From positions 235,476,001 to 235,540,000 of the forward strand of contig NC_091471.1 of the NCBI RefSeq assembly GCF_036971445.1: a DNA stretch of 64,000 bases, written 5' to 3'. Numbering within the stretch: position 1 is the first letter of the stretch; each line of letters starts with the position of its first letter. Under the pieces are notes generated by a model. The model made no database searches. It had not been told where the DNA came from and saw nothing but the letters and a program-made list of their open reading frames with translations. Positions 25,073 through 55,800 of this stretch are shown in pieces. Source of the DNA: Narcine bancroftii. Taxonomy: Eukaryota. Both the position numbers and the translations under genes were made by a program.

Positions 25073-26049
25073 NNNNNNNNNNNNNNNNNNNNNNNNNNNN
25101 NNNNNNNNNNNNNNNNNNNNNNNNNNNNNNNNNNNNNNNNNNNNNNNNNNNNNNNNNNNNNNNNNNNNNNNNTCTCCACACTGTTCCCTTTTCTCGTTTC
25201 CTCCCTCCCCTTACCCCTCACTCTCTCTCCATGAACTCCTCTTCGCTTCCCCTCCCGCACCTCCTCCACTCCACCATGACCCCGGGATTAGAGAGGTGGG
25301 GGGAATCAGCCAGCATTCCTGCTCCCCGTCACTGCCCAGTGACCCCGGGGGTTAGAGATGGAGGGAGGATCAGCCAGGGTTTGTGCTCCCTGTCACTGCC
25401 AGTGACTCTGGGTTAGAGGGGAGGAGGTGGAAATCAGCCAGGGTTACTGGTCTAGGTCAATGTCCAGCGATCCCTGAATTAGAGAGTGGGGGTGGGGGGG
25501 TGGGAGGGGGGGGGCGGAGAAATCAGCCAGGGTCCCTGATTCCCATCACTGCCCAGTGACCCCGGGGTTAGAAAGAGGGGGAAATCTGCCAGGGTTCCTC
25601 ATCCCTGTCACTGCCCAGTGACGCAAGGGTTAATAGTTGGGGACAAAACAGAAGATCTGATACCCTGTAATGAAACTTTTCTGTCATTAATTGATAAATT
25701 TTGTAAAATGTCACCCTCTTGATTTCGGGCTCTTGCTTGTCACTACTGGTTTCCCTGATCCCACCCCTCCCCCTGTCTTCCCCCCCCCCCCACTCCCCCT
25801 CTTTCACACCCCCCTCTCTCTCTCCCCTTTTCTGTCCCCCTCCCTCTCCCCCTTCCTGTCCCACTCCCTCTCACCCCTTCCTCTCCCCCCCTCTCTCCAA
25901 TCCCTCTCCCCTACCCCCTCTTCTCCTCACCCTCTTTCCATCTCCCCTCCTCTTCCCTCTTCCCCACCCTCTCCCCCACACTCTCCCCCTCCCTCTCCCC
26001 CTCCCACTCCCCCTCCCTCTCCCCCTCCCTCTCCCCCTCCCTCTCCCCC

Positions 26050-26365
26050 TCCCCCTCCCTCTCGCCCCCCTCCCTCTCGCCCCCCTCCCTCTCGCCCCCT
26101 CCCTCTCGCCCCCTCCCTCTCGCCCCCTCCCTCTCGCCCCTCCCTCTCGCCCCCTCCCTCTCGCCCCCTCCCTCTCGCCCCCTCCCTCTCGCCCCCTCCC
26201 TCTCGCCCCTCCCTCTCGCCCCCTCCCTCTCGCCCCCTCCCTCTCGCCCCCTCCCTCTCGCCCCCTCCCTCTCGCCCCCTCCCTCTCGCCCCCTCCCTCT
26301 CGCCCCCTCCCTCTCGCCCCCTCCCTCTCGCCCCCTCCCTCTCGCCCCCTCCCTCTCGCCCCCTC
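26050..26365. repeat. 14-bp tandem repeat (ccctctcgccccct) within a ~850-bp pyrimidine tract
   Basis: About 22 near-perfect copies upstream of KDELR1 exon 2. Confidence 0.9.
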
Positions 26366-26479
26366 CCCTCTTTCCCTCTCCCCTCTCTCTGCCCGGTCTC
26401 TCTCTCCCCTTCTCCCTTCTCTCCCCTCCTCCCCTCTTTCTCTCCCCTCGTCCCCTCTTTTTCTCTCTCTCTCTCCTTC

Positions 26480-26723: not shown

Positions 26724-29700
26724 TGTAGTGACCCTGCTGTAAGGGCCACCGAGTAAAAGACGTCAACACAGCGTGAGGGTACAGTTTACTGGTTTCAATT
26801 CTCCACGTCTCCGCACTAGCCCGCTCACTCTTGGCAACGTACCCGCCGGCTTCCAGAAGTGATGTCATAGCATTGCGGCGTCACTCTCCGGCCAATGGGC
26901 TGCTACGCGGAGGTGGAAGGCCCCTTAGCCCGCACGTGGTGCTAGGTATGGGCTCCTTGGCAGTGAAGGGGAGCCCGCACCATCTTGTACCAGCAGGGTG
27001 TTGCAGAGATTCGACCTGTTTGCCTGCACAGTAGCTCAGCCCACGACACCCCGCCCCACCCCCCCACCCCAGAATCACCGCCGCTCTCTGAGCGGTTTGA
27101 CACAGTCTCTGGGCGGTCTACCTCTGTGTTTGATCCGGGGGTCTGGGGCTGGCAGGTGTGTGAATTTGAGGCGATTGACTGTGAATCTGTCCTGTCAGCT
27201 GCCAAGGTCCAATGAGATCACCACACCATCTCTCTGCAGTACCTTGAAGGGGCCACTGTACAGGTACTATAGGTGGGGGGGTTCCTTGCTGTGCTCTGCA
27301 TATGAATATATAGTAGGTAGGCTGCAGATCCACTGGAACGTGGCTGTGGCTGGGTGGCGAGCCGTGTCTGGACGGTGGCCGGGGTAGGGGGGAGGTGAAC
27401 ACCCGTTTGTTCTCTTAGCCTGTGCAGGACATCTAACACGCGGGTTTGCGGGTTGAAATGTAGGTCCCCTGGGATGGAGAGTGGTGCACCATACACCTTC
27501 CCTGCGGACGATTGCTGGCAGGTCCTCCTTCGATGTCACGTGGATCCCGAGCTGTACCTAAGGGAGCTCGTCCATCCAGTTTGGCGAGTCAGTCAGGCTT
27601 TCAAGATGGCCTTCAGGTGGCAGTGGAACCGTTCGACCAGGCCATTTGCTTGGGGACGATAGGCTGTCATGTGGTGGACCTGGCTGCTGCAGAATTTCGC
27701 CAGATTGGACCGGAGGGAGGACGTGAACTGCACCCTTCGGTCTGATGTGATGTTGGTCGGGACTCCGAAACATGCAATCTAGGTGGTGAGGAAAGCCCAG
27801 GCGCATGTCTCTGTGTCGCACGCAGCCGTGGGTATCGCCTTTGGCCAGCGGTTGAATTTGTTGATGGTCGTGAACAGGTACCTCATACCTTTGGCTTACT
27901 GGGAGGGGGCTGACGATGTCAAGGTGGACATGTTTGAACCTGCATTGCGCCAGCTCAAAAGTCTAGAGGGTTTTGGTGTGCTGGTGCACCTTGGCATGCT
28001 GGCACTGTAAGCAGGTCTGAGCCCATGGTAACGATTCGGCAGAGCCCGTGCCACATGAACTTGTCCGAGAGCAGGTGGACCGTGGACCTTATGGAGGGGT
28101 GCGATAAGCCGTGGATCTGGTTGAAAACCCACCATTGCTTGATCGGGGGTGAGATGTTGCACAGCAGGGTTAGTTCTCCTGGTGTGGGGCAGAAATCTCT
28201 GACCTTCAGGTTGGTGATGGCTGTCTGGTACGCCTGGACAACTGTGTCCTCCCTCTAGTCCTTGGCGAACTGGGCGACATCTAGCCCTCCATAGGTTGCG
28301 GCGACAGCGGCTGAGACAACGTGTCAGCTACTATGTTGGCCTTGCCGGCAATGTGGCGGATATCCGTGGTGAATTCTGATAGGTAGGAGTGGCGCTGCTG
28401 TTGTCTGGCTGACCACGGGTCAGAGACCTTGTTCAGTGCGTAGGTCAACGGTTTGTGTAGGCAGTGAACACTCTCCCCTCTAGCATGTAGCGGAAGTGCC
28501 GTATCACCAGTTACAAGGCCAGCAGTTCGTGGTCAAACGCACTGTACATGATCTCTGGTGTTCGGAGGTGCTTACTGAAGAAGGCAAGGGGTCACTAGTG
28601 CTCGACGACCCATTGCTCTAGCACCGCACCCACCACTCTGTCTGAAGTAACCGTTGTGAGGTGGGATCCGGATGCGTTTGTACCATGGCTATCGCCAGTG
28701 CTGACATGGTGCCGTGGAAAGCCTCTGTTTCCTCTGGCGTCCACTGGAGCGTCTTGTCACCGAATTTGACGGCTAAACAGGGGCTGCGTGAGGTTGGAAG
28801 CGATGATAGAAGTTGACTATCCCCAGGAACACCTGCATTCCTTTGGTTGTGCTCGGCTTAGGGAAGTTCTGGATGGCCTCCACCTTATCGAGTAGTGACG
28901 TGGTGCCTTCTAGGGTGGTGCAGTGCCACAGAAAGATTACTGTTTGCAGGCCGAACTGGGGCGGGTTCACTGTGAAGCCCGAACTGCTGCAGCCTGTTGA
29001 ACAGGCGGGTGAGGAGCGTCCAGTGGGAGCTAGCGTCGGGGCTAGGAATGACTATGACGTCTAGATAAACGAAGATGAAATTGAGGTCCCTGCGGATCAC
29101 GTCCATCAGCCGCTGGAATGTCTGGGTTGCGTTTTTGAGTCCAAAAGGCATTCTTAGGAATTCAAAGAGGCCGAAGAGTGTGATGACGGTCGTCTTCTGG
29201 ACATCGCTTGGGTGTACCGGGATCTGGTGGTACCCCTTTGCGAGGTCCACCTTGGAGAATACCCTCGTGGCAAAGTCCTGGACGAGTGGGATGGGGTACC
29301 TGACCGGGACCGTCGCCTCATTTAGAAGTCAGTAGTTGCCACATGGACGTCAACCGCCAGAGGTCTTCTGCACCATGTGGAGCAGGGAGGCCCATGGGCT
29401 GTTGGAACACCGGGAGATCCCAAACTCCTCTGTGGCGGCGAACTTGGCCTTGGCTTGTGGGAGCTTGTCTGACAGGAAACGCCAGGCTCGTGCATGCCCT
29501 GGGGGGCCGGTGGTCTCTATGTGATGTTCCACGCCAAGTGGTGGGTTGGAGTCATGGAAGTTCGGTGTCAATAGAGCCAGGTATTTGGCCAGTAGGGAGG
29601 CCTACTCACCTGGGTCCAGGGCATAGATTCCCAGTTGCAGGAAAGAGCGACTCTGCAGGGGGAGGGGGAAAGACTGGAACGTTGTGGCATTTACTAACCA

Positions 29701-31091
29701 GCATCTTGTCATGTCCACCAGCAGTTCGTGAGCCCAGAGGAAATCCGCTCCGAGTAATGCCTGTCCCACGTCTGCGATGGTTCACTCCCACTGGAAAACC
29801 TTGTCTGCAATGTGGATGGTGACCAGGCGGGTCCCGTAGCTGGGGATGGAGGACCTGTTGGCCGCTTGCATGGGAAGGCCTTTGTTGTTGTGTCTCGCCT
29901 CAAAATACGTGGGCGGGATGAGGCTAATCTCTGCGCCCGTGTCGACAAGGAAGTCCCTCTTGATCCTCTGGTCTCTAAGGTAGAGTGGGCCTTTCTGAGC
30001 ACCAACTGCTGAGGCCACTATTGGCGGCTGGCCTGCTAATTTCCATGTTGGTTTTGGTGGTGGGGTACGAGTGTGGGGGGGTGGGGAGTGCACCACCGGG
30101 CATTCCTGCCCCTGTTCTTCTCCGCGCGCCCTTTCTGTTGCCACCGTGCCATGGCTACCGCTGGTGTTTCTGGTGGGCTGGACGGGGGTGTGTGGTGGTG
30201 GAACAGCTTGTCTGCCTCCTTGGCTACGAGGTGTGGGGCGCTGAAATCCATGTCCGAAACTGCCAAGGATACGTGCACTGGTAGTTTCGAGAGGAACAGG
30301 GCCTCGAACAGGAAACAGTCAGTGTTCCCGTCTGCCAGGGCCACCACCTCATGCATTAGCTCAGAGGGGTTTCTGTCGCCCAGGCCCTGAGGATTCTGAT
30401 GGCGCTCATGCTGGCTGAGCTCTCGGGTGTGGAGGATGAAAAGTCGGAACTGCTCGTACTTTCGCTCTATTGGCAAGTTCTCCATGAAGGAGCTTACTTT
30501 GGCAGCGGCGGCGGTGTCCAGAGCGCTGATGACGTGCCCAAACTCTTTGTCCTCTGAGACGATTCTCCTGATGTGGAACTGGGACTCAGCCAGCTGCAGC
30601 CAGATCCTGGGCTGGCTTGCCCAGAGCAGCGGGAGATGTACGCCCACCGCGTTGGTCGCGAGCACTGCAACTGCGGATTCAGCTGGTTTGCTGCATGTTC
30701 GTGTGATCGATGCTGGTTCCAAAACATTGGAACCGTTGGGGTCACCACTGTAGTGACCCAATTGTAGCCTTGTTACTGAGTAGAGACATCCACACAGGGG
30801 AGGGTGAACCAAAGAATGACTTTACTGGCTTGAATTCCCTGTGTCTCCGCGCTGGCCTGCCCACTTCCGGTGACGTACCCGCCGGCTTCCGGACATGACG
30901 TCATTGCTTCATGGTGTCACTCTCCAGCTGGCGGGCTGTTACGTGAACATGGAAGGCTCCTTAGCCCGAATGTGCCGCTATGCGCGGTCTCCTCAGTGGT
31001 GAAGGAGAGCCCGCGCTATCTTGGACGGGCTGTGTGTTGCGGAGATTCAACCCAACACATTTACCCACACGGTCACTCAGCCCACTGCACA
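26724..31091 (-). mobile_element. Decayed full-length Gypsy/Ty3 LTR retrotransposon in KDELR1 intron 2
   Basis: LTRs 26724-27048 and 30749-~31091; PBS TGGTGACCCC (tRNA-Trp type) at 30747-30738; G-rich polypurine tract 27049-27070; gag LPLLWASQPRIWLQLAESQF, protease FLVDTGAEIS, RT DLAKGYHQIP..FLRMPFGLKNA; many stops and frameshifts. Confidence 0.9.
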
Positions 31092-31104: not shown

Positions 31105-33035
31105 AGGACTGGAGGAGAGGGAGCTTCACTCTGTGTCCACCCTGGGAGTGTGTGATGGGACGGGGGAGAGGGAGCTTCACTCTGTGTCCACCCCGGGAGT
31201 GTGTGACGGGATGGGGAAAAGGGACCTTCAATCTGTCCCACCCCGGGAGTGTGTGACAGGACGGGAAAGAGGGAGCTTCACTCTGTGTCCCACCCCAGGA
31301 GTGTGTGATGGGAGCTTCAATCTGTGTCCCACCCCAGGAGTGTGTGACGGGATGGGAAGAGGGACCTTCAATCTGTCCCACCCCGGGAGTGTGTGACGGG
31401 ACGGGAAAGAGTGAGCTTCAGTCTGTGTCCCACCCCAGGAGTGTGTGACGGGACGGGGGAGAGGGAGCTTCACTCTGTGACCCACCCCGGGAGTGTGTGA
31501 CGGGACGGGGGAGAGGGAGCTTCAATCTGTGTCGCACCCCGGGAGTGTGTGACGGGATGTGGGAGAGGGAGCTTCAATCTGTGTCCCACCCCGGGAGTGT
31601 GTGACGGGATGTGGGAGAGGGAGCTTCAATCTGTGTCCCACCCTGGGAGTGTGTGATGGGACGGGGGAGAGGGAGCTTCACTCTGTGTCCCATCCCGGGA
31701 GTGTGTGATGGGACGGGGGAGAGGGAGCTTCACTCTGTGTCCCACCCCGGGAGTGTGTGACGGGACGGGGAGAGGGAGCTTCACTCTGTGTCCCACCCCG
31801 GGAGTGTGTGACGGGATGTGGGAGAGGGAGCTTCAATCTGTGTCCCACCCTGGGAGTGTGTGATGGGACGGGGGAGAGGGAGCTTCACTCTGTGTCCCAT
31901 CCCGGGAGTGTGTGATGGGACGGGGGAGAGGGAGCTTCACTCTGTGTCCCACCCCGGGAGTGTGTGACGGGACGGGGAGAGGGAGCTTCACTCTGTGTCC
32001 CACCCCGGGAGTGTGTGATGGGACGGGGGAGAGGGAGCTTCACTCTGTGTCCCACCCCGGGAGTGTGTGACGGGACGGGGGAGAGGGAGCTTCACTCTGT
32101 GTCCCACCCCGGGAGTGTGTGACGGGACGGGGGAGAGGGAGCTTCACTCTGTGTCCCACCCCGGGAGTGTGTGACGGGATGTGGGAGAGGGAACTTCAAT
32201 CTGTGTCCCACCCCGGGAGTGTGTGACGGGATGTGGGAGAGGGAGCTTCAATCTGTGTCCCACCCTGGGAGTGTGTGATGGGACGGGGGAGAGGGAGCTT
32301 CACTCTGTGTCCCATCCCGGGAGTGTGTGATGGGACGGGGGAGAGGGAGCTTCACTCTGTGTCCCACCCCGGGAGTGTGTGACGGGACGGGGAGAGGGAG
32401 CTTCACTCTGTGTCCCACCCCGGGAGTGTGTGATGGGACGGGGGAGAGGGAGCTTCACTCTGTGTCCCACCCCGGGAGTGTGTGACGGGACGGGGGAGAG
32501 GGAGCTTCACTCTGTGTCCCACCCCGGGAGTGTGTGACGGGACGGGGGAGAGGGAGCTTCACTCTGTGTCCCACCCCGGGAGTGTGTGACGGGATGTGGG
32601 AGAGGGAACTTCAATCTGTGTCCCACCCCGGGAGTGTGTGACGGGATGTGGGAGAGGGAGCTTCAATCTGTGTCCCACCCCGGGAGTGTGTGACGGGACG
32701 GGGGAGAGGGAGCTTCAATCTGTGTCCCACCCCGGGAGTGTGTGATGGGACGGGTGAGAGAGAGCTTCACTCTGTGTCCCACCCCGGGAGTGTGTGACGG
32801 GACGGGGGAGAGGGAGTTTCACTCTGTGTCCCACCCCGGGAGTGTGTGACGGGACGGGGGAGAGGGAGCTTCACTCTGTGTCCCACCCCGGGAGTGTGTG
32901 ACGGGACGGGGGAGAGGGAGCTTCACTCTGTGTCCCACCCCGGGAGTGTGTGATGGGACGGGGGAGAGGGAGCTTCACTCTGTGTCCCACCCTGGGAGTG
33001 TGTGACGGGACGGGGGAGAGAGAGCTTCACTCTGT
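31105..33035. repeat. 52-bp minisatellite, about 37 homogeneous copies
   Basis: Unit gggagcttcactctgtgtcccaccccgggagtgtgtgacgggacgggggaga; ends ~30 nt before KDELR1 exon 3. Confidence 0.95.
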
Positions 33036-33064
33036 TGTCTGACCCTTTGCTGAATTCCTTGCAG

Positions 33065-33223
33065 GTTGTCTATATCAGCTGCTCCTATGGGACTGTCTGG
33101 TTGATTTATTCAAAATTTAAAGCCACATATGATGGGAATCATGACACATTTCGAGTGGAATTTTTGCTGGTGCCTGCAGCGATTTTGGCCTTTATCGTGA
33201 ATCACGACTTCACTCCTCTTGAG
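33065..33223 (+). CDS. KDELR1: KDEL receptor 1 exon 3
   Basis: gcag|...|gtgagc; 159 nt, VVYISCSYGTVWLIYSKFKATYDGNHDTFRVEFLLVPAAILAFIVNHDFTPLE. Confidence 0.95.
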
Positions 33224-33518
33224 GTGAGCGTGTTCTAGGACTGAGGGAGCCACACTGTCAGGGGGAGATGTATATACTCCGGGACCGCGGCCCATAATCG
33301 AGGCCCACCCTCCCCGGGGCCCAGACTGAGGGAGCCACTGTCGGGGAGGAGGGATCGGGGGGGGGGAAAGGAGATGTATATACTCTGGGAACTCCCTCCC
33401 CCCCTTCTCTGCCGTACATTTCCCTCCCCTCCCCTCTCTACTGTGCTCTTTCCCCCCACCTTTCTGCCGGTCTCCCCTTCCCCCATTGGACGTTGACAGA
33501 AGTTCTCTCCTGCCCCAG

Positions 33519-33771
33519 ATCATGTGGACCTTCTCCATTTACCTGGAGGCAGTGGCCATCCTGCCGCAGCTGTTCCTGGTGAGCCGGACAGGCGAGGCGG
33601 AGGCCATCACCAGCCACTATCTGTTTGCCCTGGGTCTGTACCGAGGACTCTACCTCCTCAACTGGCTGTGGAGGTACCAGACGGAGGCATTCTCCGATCT
33701 CATCGTTATCGTGGCTGGCATCGTGCAGACCGTCCTTTACTGTGATTTCTTCTACCTCTACGTCACCAAAG
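33519..33771 (+). CDS. KDELR1: KDEL receptor 1 exon 4
   Basis: cccag|...|gtcagc; 253 nt, [19 protein letters not shown]...[10 protein letters not shown]...[16 protein letters not shown]; SHYLFALG is KDELR1-like. Confidence 0.95.
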
Positions 33772-34984: not shown

Positions 34985-35369
34985 AGGTGGTCTCTGTTCC
35001 CCCTGGGGTGGGGGGGGGGGGAGAGAGGTGGTCACTGAGATCTGAGCTCTCGCTCACCTCCTGCTCACTCCCCCCTCCTCCCCGCTCTCACCCCCTCCCA
35101 CCACAGAGCAACCCCTGCCACCTCTCACCCTTCCCTGTCCGATTTCAAGGATCATTTCCATGGGTTGCCTCAGTCCTTCACCGTGGCCTGTTCTTTCTGT
35201 AAATAAATTGTAGGGTCTCATCTTCTGTGCGATATCGCAATAAAGTGTTCAGTGGCCAGGCATGAGTCTGTCTTGTTTTCCTGCACATCATCACTTAACG
35301 AAGACCTGTACACCTTCTTAACAACACTAGTGACCTGTGTGGTAGCTTCGAGTGTGTTGTCGTTTAGAG

Positions 35370-40130: not shown

Positions 40131-41163
40131 TACTATAAATTATAATTCCGTGAATAGGTTGAAATAACATAAAGGCCGCTTTTTGAAGACCCCGTCTCAT
40201 GTCGATGTCCTTGATGGAGTGAAGTCTGGTTCCCGTGATGTCACAGGCCGAGTGAACAACCCTGTGAAGTTTATTCTTGTCCTGAGAGTTGGCACCTCCA
40301 TACCAGACAGTGACGGAACGAGCCAGAATGTTCTCCATGGTCCACCTGTAGAGGTTTAAAAGAGACTTCGGTGACGACCGAATCTCCTCAGACCCCGCAC
40401 AGAGTCTCACCACTGATGAGCCTTCCTTATGATTACATCAACGTGGAGGCTCCAGGACAGATCCTTGGATATATTTACCCCAGGAATTTTTTTTTAAAAA
40501 TTTTGTATTTTTCACACTATAAACCATATTGAACAAGATACATACATTTTCCTTTAATAAATATATACAGTGTCGTTTTCTCCCCCCCTTCCCTCCTCCC
40601 CTCCCTCCCTCCCTCACCTCTCCACCCACTTATTTAAAGTTCAGAATTTAAGATACATTAAACCCGTTAAACAATGTTGTCACTCAAAAAAAATAAACAA
40701 GAAATTCCACTGAGTCAATTCTTTTCATTCCCTTCTCCTTCTGTAATTTTAGGTGGTAGATGTCCCCGGTAGGTTTTCTCTATTGTGTTTCATGTATGGC
40801 TCCCATATTTGTTCAAATATTGTAATATTATTTCTTAAATTATATGTTATTTTTCCTAATGGAATACATTTATTCATTTCTATATACCTGTGATAGTACA
40901 GATCTATCACCAATGTACATAGTGTATATAGTTACTGTATCTAGACTGTGCTTACAGCGATTGGCTGAGAGCTAAGCCACACCTATTGTTTGGGCCTTAA
41001 AGGGTTGTGTCCCTAGCCAGGTCGGATCATTCCGGACTGGTCGGCCACCTGTGAAGAGCTCCGGTCTTTTGCTAATAAAAGCCTTGGTTTGGATCAACAA
41101 GTCTTTGGTTCTTTCGACGAGCTCTACAATTTTATTAGCAAAAAGAATTTTTTTTTGAAAGGG

Positions 41164-41913
41164 ATGGAGCGTTTAACTCGGCCAGAAAAACTTGATATCG
41201 ACCCACAGTCAGCTACAGCCTTCAAAGCCTTTAAGTTCTGGCTGCTGAACTTTGAAAACTTCCTGAGATTCATTCAGGTAGAGGAGGATAACCAGTGTCT
41301 AACAGCATTGCTGTCTATGGTGTCCTTGAGAGTCTACGAGAACATCCAGGATGAGACCACTTACACCGCAGCCATAAAGGTACTGAAGGAACTGTATGAT
41401 CAACCGGTGAACAGAGTTCATGCCCGGCTCATGCTTGCGTCGAGGAAGCAACAGCCCGGCGAGTCCAGCAGGGCATATTTACAAGTATTAAAGGCATTGG
41501 GCAAGGACTGTAACTGTGTGGACAAAACTGCTGCCGAGATCACTAGCGACCTCGTCCGGGATGCCTATGTGGCCGGGCTCCGGTCGAACGAAGTGAGGCT
41601 GCGTTTGCTCGAGCAAGGGGTAGAAAAACTAGAGGACGTGGCCCGGATTGCAATCACAATGGAGGATGCAGCCTTAAAGTCCACCGAGCTCTCTAGGGAC
41701 TGGACCCCTCGTTCTGATGTGAGTAGAGTGCCACCCACAACAGCACTTCCGGGAGGTTCTCCAACCTGCTTCTCGAGCGTTGACTACGTCATCCCGTTGC
41801 GTGACGTCATCCCGTTGCGTGACGTCATCGCGCAAAACTCGCCTGTCAACTGCTTCAATAACATTAAACCAGCAATGCTCTCATCCCCTCACCAGAGCAA
41901 TGGAACTGATTAA
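41164..41913 (+). CDS. Gypsy gag
   Basis: MERLTRPEKLDIDPQS...RKQQPGES...VRDAYVAGL; zinc knuckle absent. Confidence 0.8.
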   Translation: MERLTRPEKLDIDPQSATAFKAFKFWLLNFENFLRFIQVEEDNQCLTALLSMVSLRVYENIQDETTYTAAIKVLKELYDQPVNRVHARLMLASRKQQPGESSRAYLQVLKALGKDCNCVDKTAAEITSDLVRDAYVAGLRSNEVRLRLLEQGVEKLEDVARIAITMEDAALKSTELSRDWTPRSDVSRVPPTTALPGGSPTCFSSVDYVIPLRDVIPLRDVIAQNSPVNCFNNIKPAMLSSPHQSNGTD

Positions 41914-44704
41914 AGTGCATGGACACTACACCAATTGCTTATTTGACTCTGGGTCAACTGACAGTTTTATCCAGCCAGATCTGGCCTTCCGTTGGGGACT
42001 TGACATTATCCCCACTACCCAGAGGATCTCATTAGCGACGAGGTCGCACTCGACTGGGATAAAGGGGTATTGCATCGCCACGCTGGAAGTACAGGGCGTG
42101 ACGGTCACCCACTTTAAATTATTCGTCCTTCCCCAATTGTGCGCCCCAGTGTTGCTGGGATTAGACTTCCAGTGTCAGTTCCAAACGGTGTCCCTACACT
42201 TTGGGGGACCCCACGCCCCCCTCTCGGTCTGCCATCGCCCCACTCCCGAAGCACCCGAGCAACCCGCCCCCGTGCCCCGGGGCCAATCCTGCGGCCTTTC
42301 CACACTCCGGATTGCCCCGCCAGCACTCTTCGCAAACCTCACCCCTGGCTGGAAGCCTGTGGCCACCAAAAGTCGGCAATATAGTTACGAAAACAGGCAA
42401 TTCATTAGGAGTGAGGTGCGTAGATTGCTGGATGAGGGCATCATCGAACCCAGTTCAGGCCCCTGGAGAGCCCAGGTGGTGGTTGTCAAGAATGGGGAAA
42501 AACTACGGATGGTGGTCGACTATAGCCAGACCATTAACCGCTTCACACTCCTGGATGCGTACCCCCTGCCACGCATCACGGATGTGGTGAACCAGATCGC
42601 CCAGTACCGCATTTTCTCCACTATTGACCTACGTTCGGCCTACCACCAGCTCCCGATCCGCTGCGAGGACCGACCATTCACGGCCTTTGAAGCGAATGGG
42701 CGGCTATATCAATTTCTCAGGGTACCATTCGGGGTCACAAATGGTGTCGCGGTCTTCCAGCGGGAAATGGACAGGATGGTGGACCAGAACGGGCTAACCG
42801 CTACCTTCCCGTATCTGGACAATATCACCATCTGCGGCCACGACATGCAGGACCATGACGCCAACCTAGACAAATTTCTTCAAACTGCCCGTCAGCTAAA
42901 CCTGACTTACAATTTGGACAAGTGTGTTTTCCGGACCACACGACTCGCTATTCTAGGTTGTGTGGTGGAAAACGGGATAGTCATGCCAGATCCTGACCGC
43001 ATGCGTCCCTTAATGGACACCCCCCCCACATACCCAGAAAGCTCTCAAACGCTGCCTGGGCCTTTTCTCGTATTACGCCCAATGGGTTCCAAACTACGCC
43101 GACAAGGCACGTCCTCTTATCAAGACCACCTCTTTTCCCCTCTCGACCGAAGCCACAGCGGCTTTCGATCGAATCAAATCTGACATCGCTGCTGCGACGC
43201 TGCACGCGATCGATGAGTCTGTCCCGTTTCAAGTCGAGAGCGATGCATCCGACTTCGCCCTGGCAGCCACCTTGAACCAGGCCGGTCGGCCTGTAGCCTT
43301 CTTCTCCAGAACCCTCCAGGGTCCGGAGAGTAGACACTCCTCGATCGAGAAGGAGGCCCAGGCCATAGTTGAAGCGGTACGTCGTTGGAGACATTACCTC
43401 GCTGGGAGGCGCTTTACACTGTTGACTGATCAACGCGCGGTCTCCTTCATGTTCAGCAACACCCAGCGTGGTAAGATAAAAAACGACAAAATCGCCAGAT
43501 GGAGAATCGAACTCTCCACCTTTAACTATGACATCCTGTACCGGCCTGGTAAGCTCAACGACCCGCCTGACGCGCTCTCCAGGGGTCGTGCGCCAGCATA
43601 CAGATGGACAGACTACGGAAACTCCATGAGGCGCTCTGTCATCCAGGGGTCACTAGGTTTGCTCACTTTGTCAAGGCGCGCAACTTACCCTACACAGTTG
43701 AGGAGATCCGCTCCATGACCCGAGCCTGTTCGGTGTGCGCCGAATGCAAGCCCCACTTCTTCCATCCGGATAACTCCCACGTCATCAAAGCCACCCGCCC
43801 CTTCGAGCGTCTTAGCGTAGACTTTAAGGGACCCCTACCGTCGACCAACCGTAATACCTACATCCTTACGGCCATCGACGAATACTCCCGCTTCCCATTC
43901 GCTGTGGCCTGCCCAGACACCACTGCCACCTCAGTGATACAGGCCCTTCACAGTATTTTCACCATCTTCGGGTACCCCAATTCCATCCACAGTGATAGGG
44001 GGTCCTCATTCATGAGTGCAGAGCTGCAACAGTACCTTCTGGAGTGTGGTATTGCTTCAAGCAGGACCACGAGCTATAACCCACGCGGTAATGGCCAGGT
44101 CGAGAGGGAGAATGCCACCATATGGAGAGCGGTTACACTGGCTCTCCGGTCTAAAGGTCTCCCCACCTCTCACTGGCAGGAGGTTCTCACTAGTGCCTTA
44201 CACTCCATCCGCTCCCTCCTATGTACTGCAACAAATGCCACCCCCCACGAAAGGATGTTCCTTTTCCCGAGGAAATCCGAATCGGGAACCACTGTACCGG
44301 CATGGCTCACCGTCCCTGGCCCCGTCCTTTTGCGACGCCACGTCCGGCACTCAAAGAACGACCCCTTGGTCGACCGAGTGACTCTACTCCACGCGAACCC
44401 ACATTACGCATACGTGGAGTTCCCAGACGGGCGGGAGGACACTGTTTCGGTGCGGGACCTAGCTCAGGACGCGGTAGACCCAGCAAACCCCCCAACTCCT
44501 TATGCTCCAGGCCCCGTGCCGCAACAGAAGGACCAACAGCACCCCAATGACTCGGGCCACCCTGCCGACAAAACGACTGGGGAATTGAGCGACGGAGCAG
44601 TCGCACCCGATGAGCCCGCTGGCGACACCACTCCAGCGACCCCAATCCCGGCACCACGGCGGTCACGCCGGATGGTCAGACCCCCTGACCGCTACAGTCC
44701 TTGA
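41780..44704 (+). pseudogene. Gypsy pol (PR, RT, RNase H, integrase) with two frameshifts
   Basis: LFDSGS, IDLRSAYHQ, RVPFG, YLDN, ESDAS, TDQ, H-H-C-C zinc finger, D-D-E (VDFKG, HSDRG, GQVER); shifts at the C-run ~43020 and G-run ~43583. Confidence 0.88.
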
Positions 44705-45964
44705 CCTACCCCTTCCTTTTCATTCTCTCCCTCGTTTTTGTTTTTTTTTTTCCCAGGGTCAATTCTCCAAGAAGGGGTGAATGTGATAGTACAGATCTAT
44801 CACCAATGTACATAGTGTATATAGTTACTGTATCTAGACTGTGCTTACAGCGATTGGCTGAGAGCTAAGCCACACCTATTGTTTGGGCCTTAAAGGGTTG
44901 TGTCCCTAGCCAGGTCGGATCATTCCGGACTGGTCGGCCACCTGTGAAGAGCTCCGGTCTTTTGCTAATAAAAGCCTTGGTTTGGATCAACAAGTCTTTG
45001 GTTCTTTCGACGAGCTCTACAATACCATTGTTGTATTCTCAAATTATCTTCTAATTTCCAGGTTGACATAATACATTTTGTTGCTACAGCTAGGGCTATC
45101 ATAACAAATCTTTTTTGTGCTCCATCCAAATCAATTCCAAATTCTTTGTTTTTTATGTTACTTAGGAGGAAGATCTCTGGCTTTTTGGTATATTGCTTTT
45201 TGTGATTTTATTTAGTATCTGGTTTAGATCTTCCCAAAATTTTTTCACTTTCTCACATGTCCATATTGCATGAATTGTTCCCGTTTCCTTTTTACAGCGA
45301 AAGCATCTGTCTGATACTGTTGGGTCCCATTTATTTAACTTTTGAGGTGTAATGTATAGCCTGTGTATCCAGTTATATTGTATCATACGTAACCTTGTGT
45401 TTATTGTATTTCTCATGGTTCCGGAGCATAGTTTCTCCCATATTTCATTCTTTATCTTTATGCTTAGATCTTGTTCCCATTTTTGTTTGGTTTTACCATT
45501 TGTTTCCTCATTCTCCTTTTCTTGCAGTTTAATATACATGTTTGTTATAAATTTTTTGATTATCATTGTATCTGTAATCACATATTCAAAATTACTTACC
45601 TCAGACTGTTTCCTAATTTGTCCTTTTTTTTTCTTGTAGTGGTTTAAAACATTTTAATAAATATATTGACAATAAATATGAATGACTCCGCATGCTTCCT
45701 CTCGACATCCAGTATTTGAAGCCTTTAAAAATATGCTTCATAAGACTACAAGACATAGGAGCAGAAATAGGCTATTCAGCCCATTGAGTTTGCCCTACCA
45801 TTCAATCATGAGCTGATCCATTTTCTCACTACCCAGCCTTCTCCCCATAACCTTAGTAGTTAAACAAGAATCCATCAATTTCTACCTTAAATATACCCAA
45901 TGACCTAGCCTCCACAACTGCCTGTGGCAACAAATTCCACAAATCTGGTTAATGTGGGATTACT

Positions 45965-48900
45965 TTTAAAAAAATTTTTATTTTTTATTTTTCACACCAT
46001 AAATCGCATTAACCATGATACACACTTTTTCCTTTTCACACATATACAGTGCCATTTTCTCCCCCCCCCTCCCTCCTCCCATCCCACCCTCCCTACTTCC
46101 CCCCTCCCATCCATTTAAGGTATAAAATCGAGGATACATTAAACCAGTCAGACAATGTTGTCATTCAATAAAAATACACCAGAAAATTCCACTGAGTCCA
46201 TTCTTTTCATTTCCTTTTCCTTCCGTTAACTTAGGTAGTGATTGTCCCCGGTAGGTTTTCGCTATTGTGTTTAATGTAAGGCTCCCATATTTGTTCGAAT
46301 ATTTCAATATTATTTCTTAAACTATATGTTTTTTTTTCTAATGGAATACATTTATTCATTTCTATATACCATTGTTGAATTTTCAAATTATCTTCCAATT
46401 TCCAGGTTGACATAATACATTTTTTTGCTACGGCTAGAGCTATCTTAACAAATCTTTTTTGTGCATCCTTCAAATCAATTCCAAATTCTTTGTTTTTTAT
46501 GTTACTTAGGAGGAAGATCTCTGGATTCTTTGGTATATTGTTTTCTGTTATTTTATTTAATATCTGATTTAGATCTTCCCAAAATTTTTCTACTTTCTCA
46601 CATGTCCAGATTGCATGAATTGTTGTTCCCATTTCTTTTTTACATCGAAAACATCTATCAGATACTGTTGGGTCCCATTTATTTAACTTTTGAGGTGTAA
46701 TGTATAGCCTGTGTATGCAGTTATATTGTATCATACGTAACCTCGTATTTATTGTATTTCTCATTGTTCCAGAGCATAACTTCTCCCATGTTTCCTTTTT
46801 TATCTTTATATTTAAATCTTGTTCCCATTTTTGTTCAGTTTTACCATTTATTTCCTCATTCTCCTTTTCTTGAAGTTTAATATACATATTTGTTATAAAT
46901 CTTTTGATTATCATTGTATCTGTAATCACATATTCAAAGTTACTTCCCTCTGGCAAACTCAAACTGCTTCCTAATTTATCCTTCAAGTAGGATCTCAACT
47001 GGTAATATGCCAGCGCTGTATCTTGAGTTATATTGTATTTATCTTTCATTTATTCAAAGGATAAGAATCTATTTCCTGAAAAACAATTTTCTATTCTTTT
47101 AATCCCTTTTTTCTCCCATTCTCTAAAGGAAAGGTTATCTATTGTAAAAGGGAGTAACTTGTTTTGCGTCAATATTAGTTTTGGCAATTGATAATTTGTT
47201 TTATTTCTTTCTACATGAATCTTCTTCCAAATATTGAGTAGATGATGTAATACTGGAGAACTTCTATGTTGTACCAATTTTTCATCCCATTTATATAATA
47301 TGTGTTCAGGTATCTTTAACCCCTATTTTATCTAATTCTAACCTAGTCCAATCTGGCTTTTCCCTTGTTTGATAAAAATCTGATAGGTATCTTAATTGTG
47401 CGGCTCTGTAATAATTTTTAAAGTTTGGCAGTTGTAAGCCTCCTTGTTTATACCATTCTGTTAATTTATCTAGTGCTATCCTCGGTTTCCCCCCTTTCCA
47501 TAAAAATTTCCTTATTATTTTCTTTAACTCCTTGAAGAATTTCTCTGTCAGTTGTATTGGCAATGCCTGAAATAGGTATAATATCCTTGGAAAAATGTTC
47601 ATTTTAATACAGTTTATCCTTCCTATTAGTGTTAGTGGTAAATCTTTCCAATGCTCTAAAACGTCCTGTAATTTTTTCATTAGTGGATAATAATTGAGTT
47701 TATATAGTTGGTCGAGATTTTTGTTTATTTGTACACCTAGGTATCTTATTGCTTGCATTTGCCATCTAAATGGTGATTCCTTCTTAAATTTTGAGAAATC
47801 CGCATTATTCATAGGCATTGCTTCACTTTTATTTACGTTGATCTTGTAACCCGACACTTCTCCATATTCCTTCAATTTCTTATATAATTCTCTTATTGAT
47901 AGTTCTGGTTCTGTTAAGTATACTATAACATCATCCGCAAATAAACTGATTTTATATTCCTTGTCTTTTATTTTTATTCCTTTTATATTATTTTCTGTCC
48001 TTATCAATTCTGCTAGTGGTTCTATAGCTAACACAAACAATAAAGGTGATAGTGGGCATCCCTGCCGTGTTGACCTGCTTAAGTTAAATTGCTTTGATAC
48101 ATGTCCATTTACTGTCACTTTCGCTAACGGTCCCTTATATAATGCTTTAATCCAATTAATATACTTCTCCGGTAAACTGAATTTTTGCAATACTTTGAAC
48201 AAATAATTCCATTCTACTCTGTCAAAGGCCTTCTCTGCGTCTAAAGCAACTGCTACTGTTGGTGCTTTATTCCCTTCTACTGCATGAATTAAGTTAATAC
48301 ATTTACAAATATTGTCTGTTGTGCGTCTTTTTTTGATAAATCCAGTTTGGTCTAGATTTACCATTTTCGGTACATACTCTGCTAATCTATTTGCTAATAG
48401 TTTAGCTATTATCTTATAATCTGTGTTAAGTAAAGATATTGGTCTATATGACGCTGGTATGAGTGGATCTTTCCCTTGTTTTAGTATTACTGTAATTATT
48501 GCTGTTTTACATGAATCTGGTAAGCTTTGTGTTTTATCAATCTGGTTGATTACTTCCAGGAGGGGCGGAATTAATTAGTCTTTAAATGTTTTATAAAATT
48601 CTATTGGGAATCCATCCTCTCCTGGTGTCTTATTATTTGGTAATTTTTTTATTATCTCTTGTATTTCTACTATTTCAAATGGCTCTGTTAATTTATTTTG
48701 TTTCTCTATTTGTAGTTTTGGTAGTTCAATTTTAGTTAGAAATTCATCTATTTTCCCTTCTTTCCCTTCGTTTTCAGTTCGGTATAATTGTTCATAGAAT
48801 TCTCTAAAGTTTTCCTTAATTTCTTTTGGATTATATGTAATTTGTTTGTCTTTTTTCCTTGATGCCAATACCATTTTCTTAGCTTGTTCTGTCTTAAGCT

Positions 48901-51900
48901 GCCATGCTAGGATTTTGTGCGTTTTTTCACCTAGTTCATAATATTTCTGTTTTGTCTTCATTATATTCTTCTCCACCTTATATGTTTGTAGTGTTTCATA
49001 TTTTATTTTTTTATCTGCCAATTCTCTTCTTTTAGTTGTATCTTCCTTCATTGCTAATTCTTTTTCTATATTTACTATTTCCCTTTCCAACTGCTGTGTT
49101 TCCTGATTATAGTCCTTCTTCATCTTGGTTACATAACTTATTATTTGCCCTCTAATGAATTTGTTTTTCAATAAATTCTCTAAAATCCTGCCTTTTAAGT
49201 AACATGGGGTTTAATCTCCATCCATACATTCTTGGAGGGATGTCCTCTAACTTTACTGTCAATATTAAGGGTGAATGGTCCGATAGTATTCTAGCTTTAT
49301 ATTCTGTTTTTTTTTACTCTATCTTGCATATGAGCTGATAACAAAAATAGGTCTATTCTTGAGTATGTTTTATGTCTAGCCGAGTAATATGAATACTCCT
49401 TTTCCTTTGGATGTTGTTTCCTCCATATATCCAAAAGTTGCATTTCTTCCATCGATTTAATTATAAATTTGGTTACTTTGTTCTTTCTGTTAATTTTTTT
49501 CCCAGTTTTGTCCATATTTGAATCCAAATTCAGGTTGAAATCCCCTCCTATTAATATGTTCCCTTGCGTATCTGCTATCTTCAAAAAGATATCTTGCATA
49601 AACTTTTGATCTTCTTCGTTAGGTGAATATATATTGAGTAGATTCCAAAACTCCGAATATATCTGACATTTTATCATTACATATCTCCCTGCTGGATCTA
49701 TTATTTCCTCTTCTATTTTAAATGGCACATTTTTACTAATTAATATAGCTACTCCTCTTGCTTTTCAATTATACAATGCTGCTGTTACGTGTCCTACCCA
49801 ATCTCTCTTTAATTTCTTGTGCTCCAATTCAGTTAAATGTGTTTCTTGCACAAATGTTATATCAATTTTTTTCTTTTTTCAGTAAATTTAGCAGTTTCTT
49901 CCTTTTAATTTGGTTATGTATTCCATTAATATTTAAAGTCATATAGTTCAACATAGCCATTTTATACTTTGTTTATCTTCCCTTTCCGTTTCTCGATCAT
50001 TACCTTTCCTTCTTATCCATTTCTGTTTTCTTGTTTTGAACCCTTTATAAGACAACATTCCTAAAACATCAAACATTTTCCTTATTCTCCTATTTAAAAC
50101 TTCTTTAGCCCCAATCCCCCCTTCCCCTCCTGAGTTGTCCTTTATCCCTTGTCGGACAACCACATCTCCCCTCTCCTTTGGATTTGCGAATTCACTCGCA
50201 AGCGTCAGCTGATTTTGCAGTGACTGTAACTCTTCCCCACCCAGCCACCCCAGAAAAGATTTCACTTTTCATATGTAACAAAGGTCACTCTTTTAATTCC
50301 CTCCTTATTCCCTCTATTCCATTTCCTTCCCTTATTAATTCTTGTCTATACTATCTATATTTTCCTCTAAATATGGATACATTCATGTATGCACATTATA
50401 CATATACACACATATACCTCTTTACCCACATACATATAAATCGTGGTCATTTTTACTCTTATTACATGTCTTCATCTCTCTGTTTGTTTTGTAGTTGTTC
50501 TGCAAATTTCCTTGCTTCCTCTGGATCCGAGAATAGTTTTTTTCCATAAGATCGTTTTCGATGTATTGAACTCCTTCCTCTTCTTCAGGAGTTCAAAACT
50601 TATGTGTCTTTTTAGTTCGCAGTCTTTTGTACTCTCGTTACACGTCTTCATCTCTCAGTCTATTTTGTAATTGTTCTGCAAATTTTTGTGCTTCCTCTGG
50701 ATCCGAGAATAGTCTGTTTTGTTTTCCTGGAATAAATATTTTCAATACCGCTGGATGCTTTAGTATAAATTTATACCCTTTCTTCCATAAAATCGCCTTT
50801 GCTGTATTGAACTCCTTTCTCTTCTTCAGGAGTTCAAAACTTATATCTGGATAAATGAAGATTTTTTGCCCTTTGTACTCCAGTGGCTTGTTGCCCTCTC
50901 TTACTTTTTCCATTGTTTTCTCCAGTACCTTTTCTCTTGTAGTATATCTTAGGAATTTTACTAAAATAGATCTTGGCTTTTGTTGTGGTTGTGGTTTAAA
51001 GGCCAATGCTCTATGTGCCCTTTCTGTTTCCATTTCTTGCTGTAGTTCTGGACATCCTCGGATCCTAGGGATCCAATCTTTTATAAACTCTCTCATATTC
51101 TTGCCTTCTTCATCTTCATTAAGGCCCACTATCTTTATGTTATTTCTTCTGTTATAATTTTCCATTATATCTATTTTCTGAGCTAACAGTTCTTGTGTCT
51201 CTTTAACTTTTTTATTAGATTCCTCTAATTTCTTTTTTAAGTCCTCTACCTCCATTTCTACTGCTGCTTCTCGTTCTTCCACCTTGTCCATTTTTTTTCC
51301 CATTTCTGATAAGGTCATATCTATTTTATTCATTTTCTCTTCTGTATTGTTTATTCTTCTTCTTAAATCATTAAATTCTTGCGCTTGCCATTCTTTAAAT
51401 GACTCCATGTATTCTTTAATAAGAGAAAGTATATCCTTTGTCTTGCCTTTCCCTTCTTCTTCTATTTCAATGTACTCTTCCTCTTCTTCTTCCTCTGGGT
51501 TGGCCATCTGTTGTTTCTTTGTTGTCCTTTTCTTCTCTTCTTTCTTGTTTTCGTTGTCTTCTATATTCTCCTCTTGCTGCAGCTGTTCTGCAGCTGTCAT
51601 TGCCGGCTGTGGAAATCGACTCCCCAGCTGGTCACCCCTCCCGTCGTTGTGTTTTTTTGCATGCGCGGTTGCGCACTTTTACTCGGCTCAGCGAGCCATT
51701 TTTGTAGTCCACTTTCTACCGACCTGAGGGAGCGGGTTTCTCTCTCCACCGCGGGCCTCTTCGAACAGGTAAGGCCTTCTCCTTCTTCTTCCGTTGTCTT
51801 CTCTTCCTCTCTTCTTACCGTTGGTTTTGATTTTTCTTTTTTCGTCGCCATCTTCTTTCCACCTTTATACTCACTTTACTTTAATTTTTATTTTTGTGCC

Positions 51901-51984
51901 TTTGTGTTTTCCTTTGTTTTTTCCGACTTTTCTGGAGAGGGCTGGAGTTCACCGTCCGGCCACTACTCCATCACGTGACTCCTC
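45965..51984 (-). mobile_element. L1-B: full-length L1 (5'UTR, ORF1 50638-51600, disrupted ORF2)
   Basis: 5' end gaggagtcacgtgatggagtag, ORF1 and ORF2 motifs, A-rich tail ~45965-45990; TSD tcc(t/c)aatttgtcctt at 45611-45625 and 51985-51999. Confidence 0.92.
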
Positions 51985-52860
51985 TCCCAATTTGTCCTTC
52001 AAGTAGGATTTCAGTTGGTAGTATGCCAACACTGTATTGTCAGTTATATTATATTTATCCTTCAATTGTTCAAAGGATAATAGTTTATTTCCCGAAAATC
52101 AATTCTCTATTCTTTTGATCCCTTTTTTCTCCCATTCTCTAAAGGAAAGGTTATCTATTGTAAAAGGGATAAGCTGATTTTGCGTCAGTATTAGTTTTGG
52201 TAGTTGGTAATTTGTTTTATTCCTTTCTACATGAATCTTCTTCCAAATGTTGAGCAGATGATGCAATACCGGAGAATTTCTACGTAGTACCAATTTTTCA
52301 TCCCATTTATATAATATATGTTCGGGTATCTTCTCCCCTATTTTATCTAGTTCTAATCTAGTCCAATCTGGCTTTTCCCTTGTTTGATAAAAATCTGATA
52401 GGTATCTTAATTGTGTGGCTCTATAATAATTTTTAAAGTTTGGTAGTTGTAAGCCTCCTTGTTTATACCATTCTGTTAATTTATCTAGTGCTATCCTCGG
52501 TTTCCCCCCTTTCCATAAAAATTTCCTGATTATTTTCTTTAAATCCTTGAAAAATTTCTCTGTTAATCGTATTGGTAATGTCTGAAATAAATATTGTATC
52601 CTTGGGAAAATGTTCATTTTAATACAGTTTATCCTTCCTATCAGTGTTAGTGGTAAATCTTTCCAATGCTCTAAGTCGTCTTGTATTTTTTTATTAGTGG
52701 ATAATAATTGAGATGGCTGAGGTTTTCATTTATTTGTATACCTAGATATCGCATTGCTTGCGTTTGCCATCTGAATGGTGATTCTTTCTCAAATTTTGAG
52801 AAATCTGCATTATTCATTGGTATTGCTTCGCTTTTATTTGCGTTAATCTTGTACCCCGAC

Positions 52861-55800
52861 CCAATAGAATTCTACAAAACATTTAAAGACTTATTAATAC
52901 CGCCCCTCCTGGATGTAATCAACCAGATTGATGAGACACAAAACTTACCAGATTCATGTAAAACAGCAATAATTACAGTAATACTAAAACAAGGGAAAGA
53001 TCCACTCTCACCAGCGTCATATAGACCAATATCTTTGCTAAACACAGATTATAAGATAATAGCTAAACTATTAGCAAACAGATTAGCAGAACAGGTACCG
53101 AAAATGGTAAATTTAGATCAAACTGGATTTATCAAAAAAAGACGCACAACAGACAATATTTGTAAATTTATTAACTTAATTCATGCAGTAGAAGGAAATA
53201 AAGCACCTACAGTAGCAGTTGCTTTAGACGCAGAGAAGGCCTTCGACAGAGTAGAATGGAATTATTTGTTCAAAGTATTGCAAAAATTCAGTTTACCGGA
53301 GAAGTATATTAATTGGATTAAAGCGTTATTTAAGGGACCGTTAGCGAAAGTGACAGTAAATGGACATATATCAAAGCAATTTAACTTAAGCAGGTCAACG
53401 CAGCAGGGATGCCCACTATCACCTTTATTGTTTGCGCTAGCTATAGAACCACTAGCAGAATTGATAAGAATAGATAATAATATAAAAGGAATAAAAATAA
53501 AAGACAGGGAATATAAAATCAGTCTATTTGCGGATGATGTTATAGTGTACTTAACAGAACCAGAACTATCAATAAAAGAATTATATAAGAAATTGAAGGA
53601 ATATGGAGAAGTGTCGGGTTACAAGATAAACGTAAATAAAAGTGAAGCAATGCCTATGAATAATGCGGATTTCTCAACATTTAAGAAGGAATCTCCATTC
53701 AGATGGCAAATGCAGGCAATAAGATACCTAGGTATACAAATAAACAAAAATCTCGACCAACTATATAAACTCAATTATTATCCACTAATGAAAAAATTAC
53801 AGGACGATTTAGAGCATTGGAAAGATCTACCACTAACACTGATAGGAAGGATAAACTATTAAAATGAACATTTTTCCAAGGATACTATACTTATTTCCGG
53901 CATTGCCAATACAACTGACAGAAAAATTCTTCAAAGAGTTAAAGAAAATAATAAGGAAATTTTTATGGAGAGGGGGGAAACCGAGGATAGCACTAGATAA
54001 ATTAACAGAATGGCCTTTGGAAGACTACACAAAAGAGTCTGGAAAAACAACCAACTGAAAAACCTCACAAAGATAAGCGTATACAGAGCCGTTGTCATAC
54101 CCACACTCCTGTTCGGCTCCGAATCATGGGTTCTCTACCGGCACCACCTACGGCTCCTAGAACGCTTCCACCAGCGTTGTCTCCACTCCATCCTCAACAT
54201 CCATTGGAGCGCTCACACCCCTAACGTCGAGGTACTCGAGATGGCAGAGGTCGACAGCATCGAGTCCACGCTGCTGAAGATCCAGCTGCGCTGGATGGGT
54301 CACGTCTCCAGAATGGAGGACCATCGCCTTCCCAAGATCGTATTATATGGCGAGCTCTCCACTGGCCACCGTGACAGAGGTGCACCAAAGAAAAGGTACA
54401 AGGACTGCCTAAAGAAATCTCTTGGTGCCTGCCACATTGACCACCGCCAGTGGGCTGATAACGCCTCAAACCGTGCATCTTGGCGCCTCACAGTTTGGCG
54501 GGCAGCAGCCTCCTTTGAAGAAGACCGCAGAGCCCACCTCACTGACAAAAGGCAAAGGAGGAAAAACCCAACACCCAACCCCAACCAACCAATTTTCCCT
54601 TGCAACCGCTGCAATCGTGTCTGCCTGTCCCGCATCGGACTGGTCAGCCACAAACGAGCCTGCAGCTGACGTGGACTTTTTACCCCCTCCATAAATCTTC
54701 GTCCGCGAAGCCAAGCCAAAGAAAGAAAGAAAAGAAGAATAAACAAGGAGGCTTACAATTGCCAAACTTCAAAAATTATTATAGAGCCGCACAATTAAGA
54801 TACCTATCAGATTTTTATCAAACAAGGGAAAAACCAGACTGGACGAGATTAGAATTAGATAAAATAGGGGAAAAGACACCTGAACACATATTATATAAAT
54901 GGGACGAAAAATTGGTACAACATAGAACTTCTCCAGTATTACATCATCTCCTCAATATTTGGAAGAAGATTCATGTAGAAAGAAATAAAACAAATTATCA
55001 ATTACCAAAACTAATATTGACGCAAAATAAGCTACTCCCTTTTACAATAGACAACCTTGCCTTTAGAAAATGGGAAAAAAAAGGGATTAAAAGAATAGAA
55101 AATTGTTTTTCAGGAAGTAGATTCTTATCCTTTGAACAAATGAGAGATAAGTACAATATAACTGGAGATACAGCGCTGGCATATTACCAACTGAGATCCT
55201 ACTTGAAAGATAAATTAGGAAGCAATTTGAGTTTACTAGAGGGAAGTAACCTTGAATATGTGATTACAGATACAATGTTAATCAAAAGATTTATAACAAA
55301 TATGTATATTAAACTGCAAGAAAAGGAGAATGAGGAAACAAATGGTAAAACTAAACAAAAATGGGAACAAGATTTAAATATAAAGATAAAAAAGGAAACA
55401 TGGGAAAAATTATGTTCTGGAACGATGAGAAATACAATAAATACGAGGCTACGTATGATACAATATAATTGGTTACACAGACTATACATTACACCTCAAA
55501 AGTTAAATAAATGGGACCCAACAGTATCTGATAGGTGTTTTCGATGTAAAAAAGAAATGGGAACAACAATTCATGCAATCTGGACATGTGAGAGAGTACA
55601 AAAATTTTGGGATGATCTCAATCAGATATTAAATAAAATAACAGAAAACAATATACCAAAGAATCCAGAGATCTTTCTCCTAAGCAACATAAAAAACAAA
55701 GAATTTGGAATTGATTTGGAGGATGCACAAAAAAGATTTGTTAAGATAGCCCTAGCCGTAGCAAAAAAATGTATTATGTCAACCTGGAAATTGGAAGATA

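Follow-up and report, generated by a model that had tools for sequence, protein, structure and literature searches.

A chromodomain-less animal Ty3/Gypsy lineage that probably primes reverse transcription with an arm of its own LTR

Structure of the element

The window analysed here is a 64-kb stretch of DNA from Narcine bancroftii. At positions 40889-45021 it harbors a Ty3/Gypsy LTR retrotransposon of 4,133 bp (4.13 kb), which possesses TG...CA LTRs, a target duplication and a polypurine tract. Pfam analysis revealed protease, reverse transcriptase (RT), RNase H and integrase in the order typical of Ty3/Gypsy elements, and the best match among solved structures is the Ty3 RT (E 6e-31). The element is organized as follows.

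40884-40888, plus strand: 5′ target-site duplication ATACC, inside a LINE fragment, recognized by the overlap of the flanks
40889-41128, plus strand: 5′ LTR, 240 bp, TG...CA, identical to the 3′ LTR
41164-41913, plus strand: gag, N-terminal part only, by comparison with P0273
41735-44704, plus strand: pol, with protease, RT, RNase H and integrase and no chromodomain, by Pfam and alignment with P0273
44769-44781, plus strand: polypurine tract, then AA before the 3′ LTR
44782-45021, plus strand: 3′ LTR, 240 bp, carrying a second copy of the LTR arm at 44960-44973
45022-45026, plus strand: 3′ target-site duplication ATACC

The insertion site within the LINE can be reconstructed from the window itself. 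The flanks at 40688-40888 and 45022-45186 match the contiguous segments 46170-46370 and 46366-46530, and these matches overlap by exactly the 5 duplicated bp. The end of the 5′ LTR at 41128 is separately backed by 404 contigs of run X1, the loose ends of which begin behind this position. Genomic copies of the family were surveyed through the contigs of four public runs (X1, X7, X8 and X9), and the family is abundant in the host, with 8,545 matching pieces from the X1 contigs. One X1 contig, with a joint from 41128 to 40888, links the end of an LTR to the beginning of one, the arrangement expected of tandem LTRs or of a two-LTR junction.

The first-pass annotation described the element as young. 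The two LTRs, which are 100% identical, fit this description; however, the copy is not intact. Compared with P0273, a single-frame relative that served as reference, it lacks residues 213-471, about 260 codons of distal gag including the zinc knuckle, near 41735-41772. Its pol is split over three frames, with changes near 43020-43045 and 43580-43586 that are either real or assembly errors. The window copy is thus defective despite its identical LTRs. A short tandem duplication at about 41783-41830 adjoins the point of the missing distal gag.

A perfect complement between the LTR and the primer site

As a rule, the LTR elements of animals are primed by a tRNA. Behind the 5′ LTR of this element there is no TGG, the first one falling in the region of the gag start codon. 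Instead, the segment 41130-41143, TTTTATTAGCAAAA, is the exact reverse complement over 14 nt of the LTR segment 41067-41080, TTTTGCTAATAAAA. The segments concerned are listed below.

41067-41080, plus strand: LTR arm, predicted self-primer, TTTTGCTAATAAAA, with AATAAA at 41074-41079
41081-41128, plus strand: loop between the arm and the primer site (R/U5), beginning with GCC as in most relatives
41130-41143, plus strand: primer-binding position, TTTTATTAGCAAAA, 2 nt past the terminal CA of the LTR, without TGG

Both the self-complementary site in place of a TGG and the AATAAA within the arm had been pointed out in the first-pass annotation, and both are confirmed, the former by a shuffle control as well as by the sequence. 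When the LTR was compared with the following 22 nt in 20,000 dinucleotide shuffles, none reached at least 13 paired bases, the best being 12. A sliding control over 61,669 positions outside three N gaps gave at least 13 at two sites only: the element's own and a C/G low-complexity run near 35000. A chance complement of two AT-rich stretches might be suspected from the composition of the 14-mer, which has only two G/C, and from the local fold, the 111-nt region 41060-41170 being no more stable than its own shuffles (z 0.04; the folding energy of the whole region is uninformative). This explanation is refuted by the two controls together with the position-fixed covariation described below, and we consider its probability negligible.

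Among the variants listed for runs X1, X7, X8 and X9, none of at least 5% falls within 41067-41080, against eight substitutions in 40889-41066. Minor variants of the primer site, 41138 G>A and 41140 A>T, account for 4-9% of depth in X1, X7 and X9. The same three runs contain a diverged LTR form that departs from the window LTR before 41073, and its last letters would, if carried on the same molecule, pair with the variants at 41138 and 41140.

Covariation of the two arms among relatives

A pattern scan for the gag motif yielded at least 120 metagenome loci (about 400 estimated) and 3 genome-bin loci. Among these 123 loci, 43 had no long enough flanks or lay outside the 80 with full flanks. Counts were restricted to the 45 loci in which the gag start is intact and preceded by 170 nt of sequence, plus the window, the other loci being excluded; these 46 loci form 26 families at 75% DNA identity. 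Given that the families are related and most loci come from few data sets, the counts below are not independent.

In a search anchored on the gag start only, a perfect stem of 11-18 bp was present in 32 of the 46 loci, against 18 of 8,450 control windows from the same loci. By family, this search, which is not anchored on the LTR end, found a stem of at least 11 bp in one or more members of 19 of the 26 and none of 11 in the other seven; on inspection by eye, L016/L040, L024, L027, L028 and L048 resemble decayed or missed stems, and L058 and L076 show none. When the search was anchored on the LTR end, with a junction rule fixed after the data were seen, the best-paired member representing each family and the pairing register chosen by best pairing, the junction was present in 21 of the 26 families, and in 18 of these 21 the pairing starts at primer position 1 and is unbroken for 11-18 bp. 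Paired against its own LTR, the primer site reaches 11 in these 18 of 21 families, compared with 8 of 420 pairings with the LTRs of other families. Across all 38 junction loci, the run is at least 11 in 27, ten of the first 11 positions are paired in 34, and broken runs occur in 11. The smallest perfect stem seen in the lineage is 11 bp.

Sequence analysis further revealed that stem positions 1-4 are nearly invariant among the 21 families, while positions 5-11 are paired in all 21, each of them showing between two and four kinds of base pair. Position 12 is paired in 20 of 21 families and position 16 in 12, with a drop to 3 at position 17. Single paired changes that alter both arms also separate close relatives, at position 9 between L001 and L022 and at position 7 between L008 and L064 and between L026 and L053; L038 and L054 differ by a paired change at position 14. 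The covariation between R and the primer site that the first-pass annotation had named as a test is hence found, the two arms changing together across the 26 families as well as within close pairs. As far as sequence comparison can tell, it supports well the proposal that the element self-primes.

The position of the site is likewise conserved. In every element that has two LTRs and a readable LTR end, the downstream arm begins 2 nt past the terminal CA. The window provides an internal control for this register, listed here.

26785-31052, minus strand: second Gypsy element, decayed, with LTRs 75% alike and a DUF7041 gag

Its primer site, TGGTGACCCC, resembles the tRNA-Trp site reported for CsRN1 elements, and the TGG of this tRNA-primed element stands in the same +2 register. 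In the self-complementary lineage, no TGG lies near the LTR end in any of the 38 junction loci. ARAGORN detected no tRNA gene within the 64-kb window, and Rfam gave no meaningful match at 40880-41200 (best E 4).

A fragment of a host tRNA or another small RNA might nevertheless act as the primer, with the LTR arm merely mimicking it, since half-tRNA priming is known in copia lineages (PMC6317226). Against this stand the lack of TGG at the junction loci and of a meaningful Rfam match. Moreover, the site varies by family at positions 5-16 and tracks its own LTR even between near-identical copies. Because the site changes with the LTR of its family, priming by a host RNA is, on the sequences compared, very unlikely.

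RNA structure around the arm

In folds predicted from the 5′ end of the arm, the stem has a pairing probability of 0.94-0.99 in 18 of 18 families. A helix of at least 4 bp begins on the first base past the arm in 13 of the 18 families, whereas 3.8 would be expected when the first four bases are kept constant. This helix, starting at the first base of the loop, measures 4-9 bp in most relatives; in the window copy it is only 3 bp or interrupted, so that the copy itself falls short of the 4-bp threshold.

The transcript of Tf1 is described as a three-duplex structure, with two further duplexes beside the primer site (PMC10085805). This "pretzel", with its geometry as worded in PMC10085805, was not found here: the bases that follow the arm pair with the end of U5 in 1 of 18 families (5.5 expected), and a helix between leader and loop beats shuffles in none of the 18.

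The poly(A) signal and the transcript start

The first-pass annotation had further proposed that the primer doubles as the poly(A) signal. This fits the family of the window and 13 of 21 families, in which a canonical hexamer (AATAAA or ATTAAA) lies within the arm, and it is not general, the other 8 having none there. In L001 the AATAAA is found downstream of the arm instead, and several families have variant hexamers only. The frequent overlap allows another reading, in which the stem has a regulatory function, masking the 5′ poly(A) signal or acting in packaging or translation, and priming takes some other route; the gag start, about 15-45 nt from the primer site, is compatible with such a role. 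However, the stem is kept in the 8 families without a canonical hexamer in the arm and in L001 with its AATAAA elsewhere, and a regulatory role leaves both the fixed +2 register and the missing tRNA site unexplained. We therefore regard a purely regulatory stem as unlikely.

The remaining question concerns where the transcript begins relative to the arm. Upstream of the arm, the 5′ LTR contains the following feature.

40960-41033, plus strand: possible core promoter, with ATTGG at 40960, TTAAAG at 40997 and an initiator-like match with A at 41029

We take these three motifs to be predicted core promoter elements; their spacing is canonical and would set a rival start at 41029. In this variant, transcription would begin upstream of the arm, at 41029 or near 40960, and the element would self-prime from an internal arm behind a long 5′ tail, or else with the 3′-LTR arm at 44960-44973 of the same or a co-packaged RNA. 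Consistent with an upstream start, none of 18 families has a TATA box 15-45 nt upstream of the arm. Position 10 of the arm is G in 19 of 21 families and position 11 is A or T, a pair that we take to resemble an initiator motif, and yet pairing continues to 13-16. On the other hand, the promoter arrangement is not seen in relatives, and the fall in pairing from 12/21 families at position 16 to 3/21 at position 17 is what a nearby 5′ end would give; Tf1 and Tj1, too, prime with the 5′ end of the transcript. We assign this variant a minor share of our overall confidence in self-priming.

A start at or close to the arm is preferred. By analogy, an initiator-like motif at positions 11-10 would yield an 11-nt primer, as in Tf1, and the pairing out to 13-16 suggests, from the sequences compared, starts scattered a few bases upstream. 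Two contigs of X7, guessed to be an RNA run, have an A-rich loose end behind 41091, too weak to count.

A putative model of self-priming

Taken together, this chromodomain-less animal Ty3/Gypsy lineage likely primes reverse transcription with its own LTR arm rather than with a tRNA. In Tf1, the transcript's initial 11 bases pair with the primer site and RNase H cuts (PMC7175516; the mechanism is also described in PMC4600332 and PMC5341516). On this analogy, we propose a model for the present lineage. Transcription would start at or slightly upstream of the arm, most likely at 41065-41070, a range that includes the 41065-41067 put forward in the first-pass annotation. The arm would then fold onto the primer site at 41130-41143, and the cut by RNase H would fall after 41080, where the stem adjoins the second helix, which in most relatives starts with the following base. 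From the 3′-OH so released, minus-strand synthesis would proceed through U5 and the remainder of R. In the family of the window, the arm copy in the 3′ LTR (44960-44973) would supply AATAAA for polyadenylation, the arm in the 5′ LTR being cap-proximal and paired. Finally, plus-strand copying of the primer would carry its sequence back into the primer site, rewriting it in every cycle; this would account for the persistence of a perfect complement. The self-primer of Tf1, for its part, is reportedly not removed.

The model is amenable to experiment. Given that the family is present in high copy with identical LTRs in the host, its transcript start and strong-stop DNA are directly testable.

Phylogeny of the lineage

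Proteins named as Narcine bancroftii are 94-98% (gag) and 99% (RT) identical to the element. RT relatives at 51-80%, known as protein sequences only, come from stingrays, catsharks, corals, an anemone, spiders, flukes, a whipworm and a sea slug. The long relatives consist of one reading frame, about 1,200-1,450 aa in length, and carry a CCHC knuckle. An RT alignment search of viral_contigs found no relative, and the ESM Atlas returned generic retrotransposon gag clusters only. No clade name for the lineage appears in the accessible text of PMC2774666, PMC8556966, PMC5443660, PMC3601003 or PMC6934838.

The absence of a chromodomain after the integrase, as stated in the first-pass annotation, holds for the window copy and for the lineage. 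Pfam detected none in the integrase tail of the window or in 10 long relatives at E 0.05, and PF00385 was found in none of 120 long homologues among the matches listed, the same scan finding it in L144, L170, L193 and L198.

Phylogenetic trees were built without named references and contain no Tf1 or sushi sequence; the first comprises 38 rows, with 16 of 54 omitted as fragments, frame-crossing or redundant, and the second 20 rows. In the RT/RNase H tree the lineage forms one clade of 21 rows (100/100) on a long stem. It lies apart from six chromovirus-type rows that bear a chromodomain or a Tf2-type SH3 (99/98); its loosely placed neighbours are two Gypsy elements with envelope genes (82/89). 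Topology tests marginally rejected its nesting with four fungal-type chromoviruses (p-AU 0.042), and did not reject a sister position to all five chromoviruses (p-AU 0.33). The first-pass suggestion of a lineage separate from Tf1/sushi is in line with its own RT clade and the missing chromodomain; a separate origin is not established, given the latter p-AU value and a tree without Tf1 or sushi.

Several side observations were made among the sequences surveyed. Envelope genes occur in Gypsy-type elements at L139:3549-5681 and L125:5188-7014 (a Monjiviricetes-type fusion glycoprotein and a baculovirus F-like protein). L121, L122 and L123 represent this animal retrotransposon on contigs filed in bacterial genome bins, probably reflecting eukaryotic contamination of the bins. 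The ray protein P0122 aligns with gag 1-186 and, after that, with the final part of the integrase frame, which suggests that the family includes non-autonomous copies with internal deletions; another ray protein, P0123, has 17 members. P0121, P0127 and P0041, annotated as host genes (DnaJ B13, endophilin-B1-like and PSTPIP1a isoforms), contain gag or RT of the lineage and are either gene-model chimeras or LTR-driven fusion transcripts.

Comparison with known elements

Self-priming as a mechanism is already known from the Tf1/sushi group and predicted for the Tcn1 and TAR lineages (PMC6317226). As described in the sources cited, the Tf1/sushi chromoviruses, including Tf1/Tf2 of S. pombe, Tj1 and Tosmo/Tcry, share with the present lineage the Ty3/Gypsy domain order, the lack of a tRNA site, and a primer site directly after the LTR that complements an LTR arm; the minimum stem found here also equals the Tf1 primer in length (PMC10085805, PMC7175516, PMC4600332, PMC5341516). 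In contrast, our lineage has neither a chromodomain nor a Tf2-type SH3, forms a separate long-branched RT clade and has stems of 11-18 bp. It also differs from Tf1 in having a local hairpin right after the arm instead of the pretzel, and an arm that often overlaps the poly(A) hexamer.

The Tcn1 clade, comprising moss and fungal chromoviruses, and the TAR copia lineage were predicted as self-primers by the same kind of criterion, an LTR complement of at least 10 bp starting 0-5 bp after the 5′ LTR (PMC6317226). They differ in their plant or fungal hosts, and in being chromoviruses (Tcn1) or Ty1/copia (TAR). In fungal GalEa copia elements, a "conserved hairpin site" near the 5′ LTR is proposed to replace the tRNA site, which is likewise missing (PMC5445492); there the two arms are both located downstream of the LTR and their sequence is conserved, whereas here one arm is inside the LTR and the sequence is variable.

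Two groups of animal elements were compared by anatomy. Cigr-1 is about 4.2 kb in length, with 245-bp LTRs and one reading frame, an anatomy that our lineage resembles. The Cigr-1/MolGy clades have marine invertebrate hosts and are likened here by description only; the main text of their report makes no mention of primer sites (PMC6238403). Elements of the CsRN1 clade are also small metazoan Gypsy elements without a chromodomain, and one is present in the same window. They are described with a tRNA-Trp site, a CHCC gag motif and a 4-bp duplication (PMC2582038), whereas the present lineage has no TGG, CCHC in the relatives and a 5-bp duplication. These three differences speak against membership in the CsRN1 clade.

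In the literature examined, Gypsy self-priming is confined to the Tf1/sushi chromoviruses and tested mainly in fission-yeast elements. Our search found no report of it in a non-chromovirus, chromodomain-less animal Gypsy element; subscription journals, Repbase, GyDB and the supplements of PMC6238403 lay outside its scope, so an earlier mention is possible. If the model is correct, tRNA-free priming would prove more widespread, occurring also in a second lineage, one of animals that lacks a chromodomain and differs in RNA structure, and it perhaps arose more than once. Such elements would, by inference, also escape tRNA-derived small RNAs aimed at the primer site. Tools that require a tRNA match to call primer sites will mis-annotate the whole lineage.

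More tentatively, and with somewhat less than even confidence, we suggest that self-priming arose separately from Tf1/sushi in an old and large Gypsy lineage that is spread over cartilaginous fish and many invertebrates. This may have involved an RNA architecture of its own, in which the roles of transcription initiator, of primer and, in many cases, of poly(A) signal would fall to one stretch of 11-17 nt, and the RNase H cut would be set by a hairpin stacked against the 3′ end of that stretch rather than by a pretzel.

Other features of the window

Further features of the window are as follows.

25790-26450 and 31113-33100: tandem arrays of 14-bp and 52-bp units
33495-33770, plus strand: exon of a KDEL receptor (ER lumen protein-retaining receptor), Pfam E 8.5e-25
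about 45000-52900, minus strand: several copies of LINE elements, in which endonuclease, RT and ORF1-like frames are present

The Gypsy element sits in one of the LINE fragments, and it may lie in or near the KDEL receptor gene.
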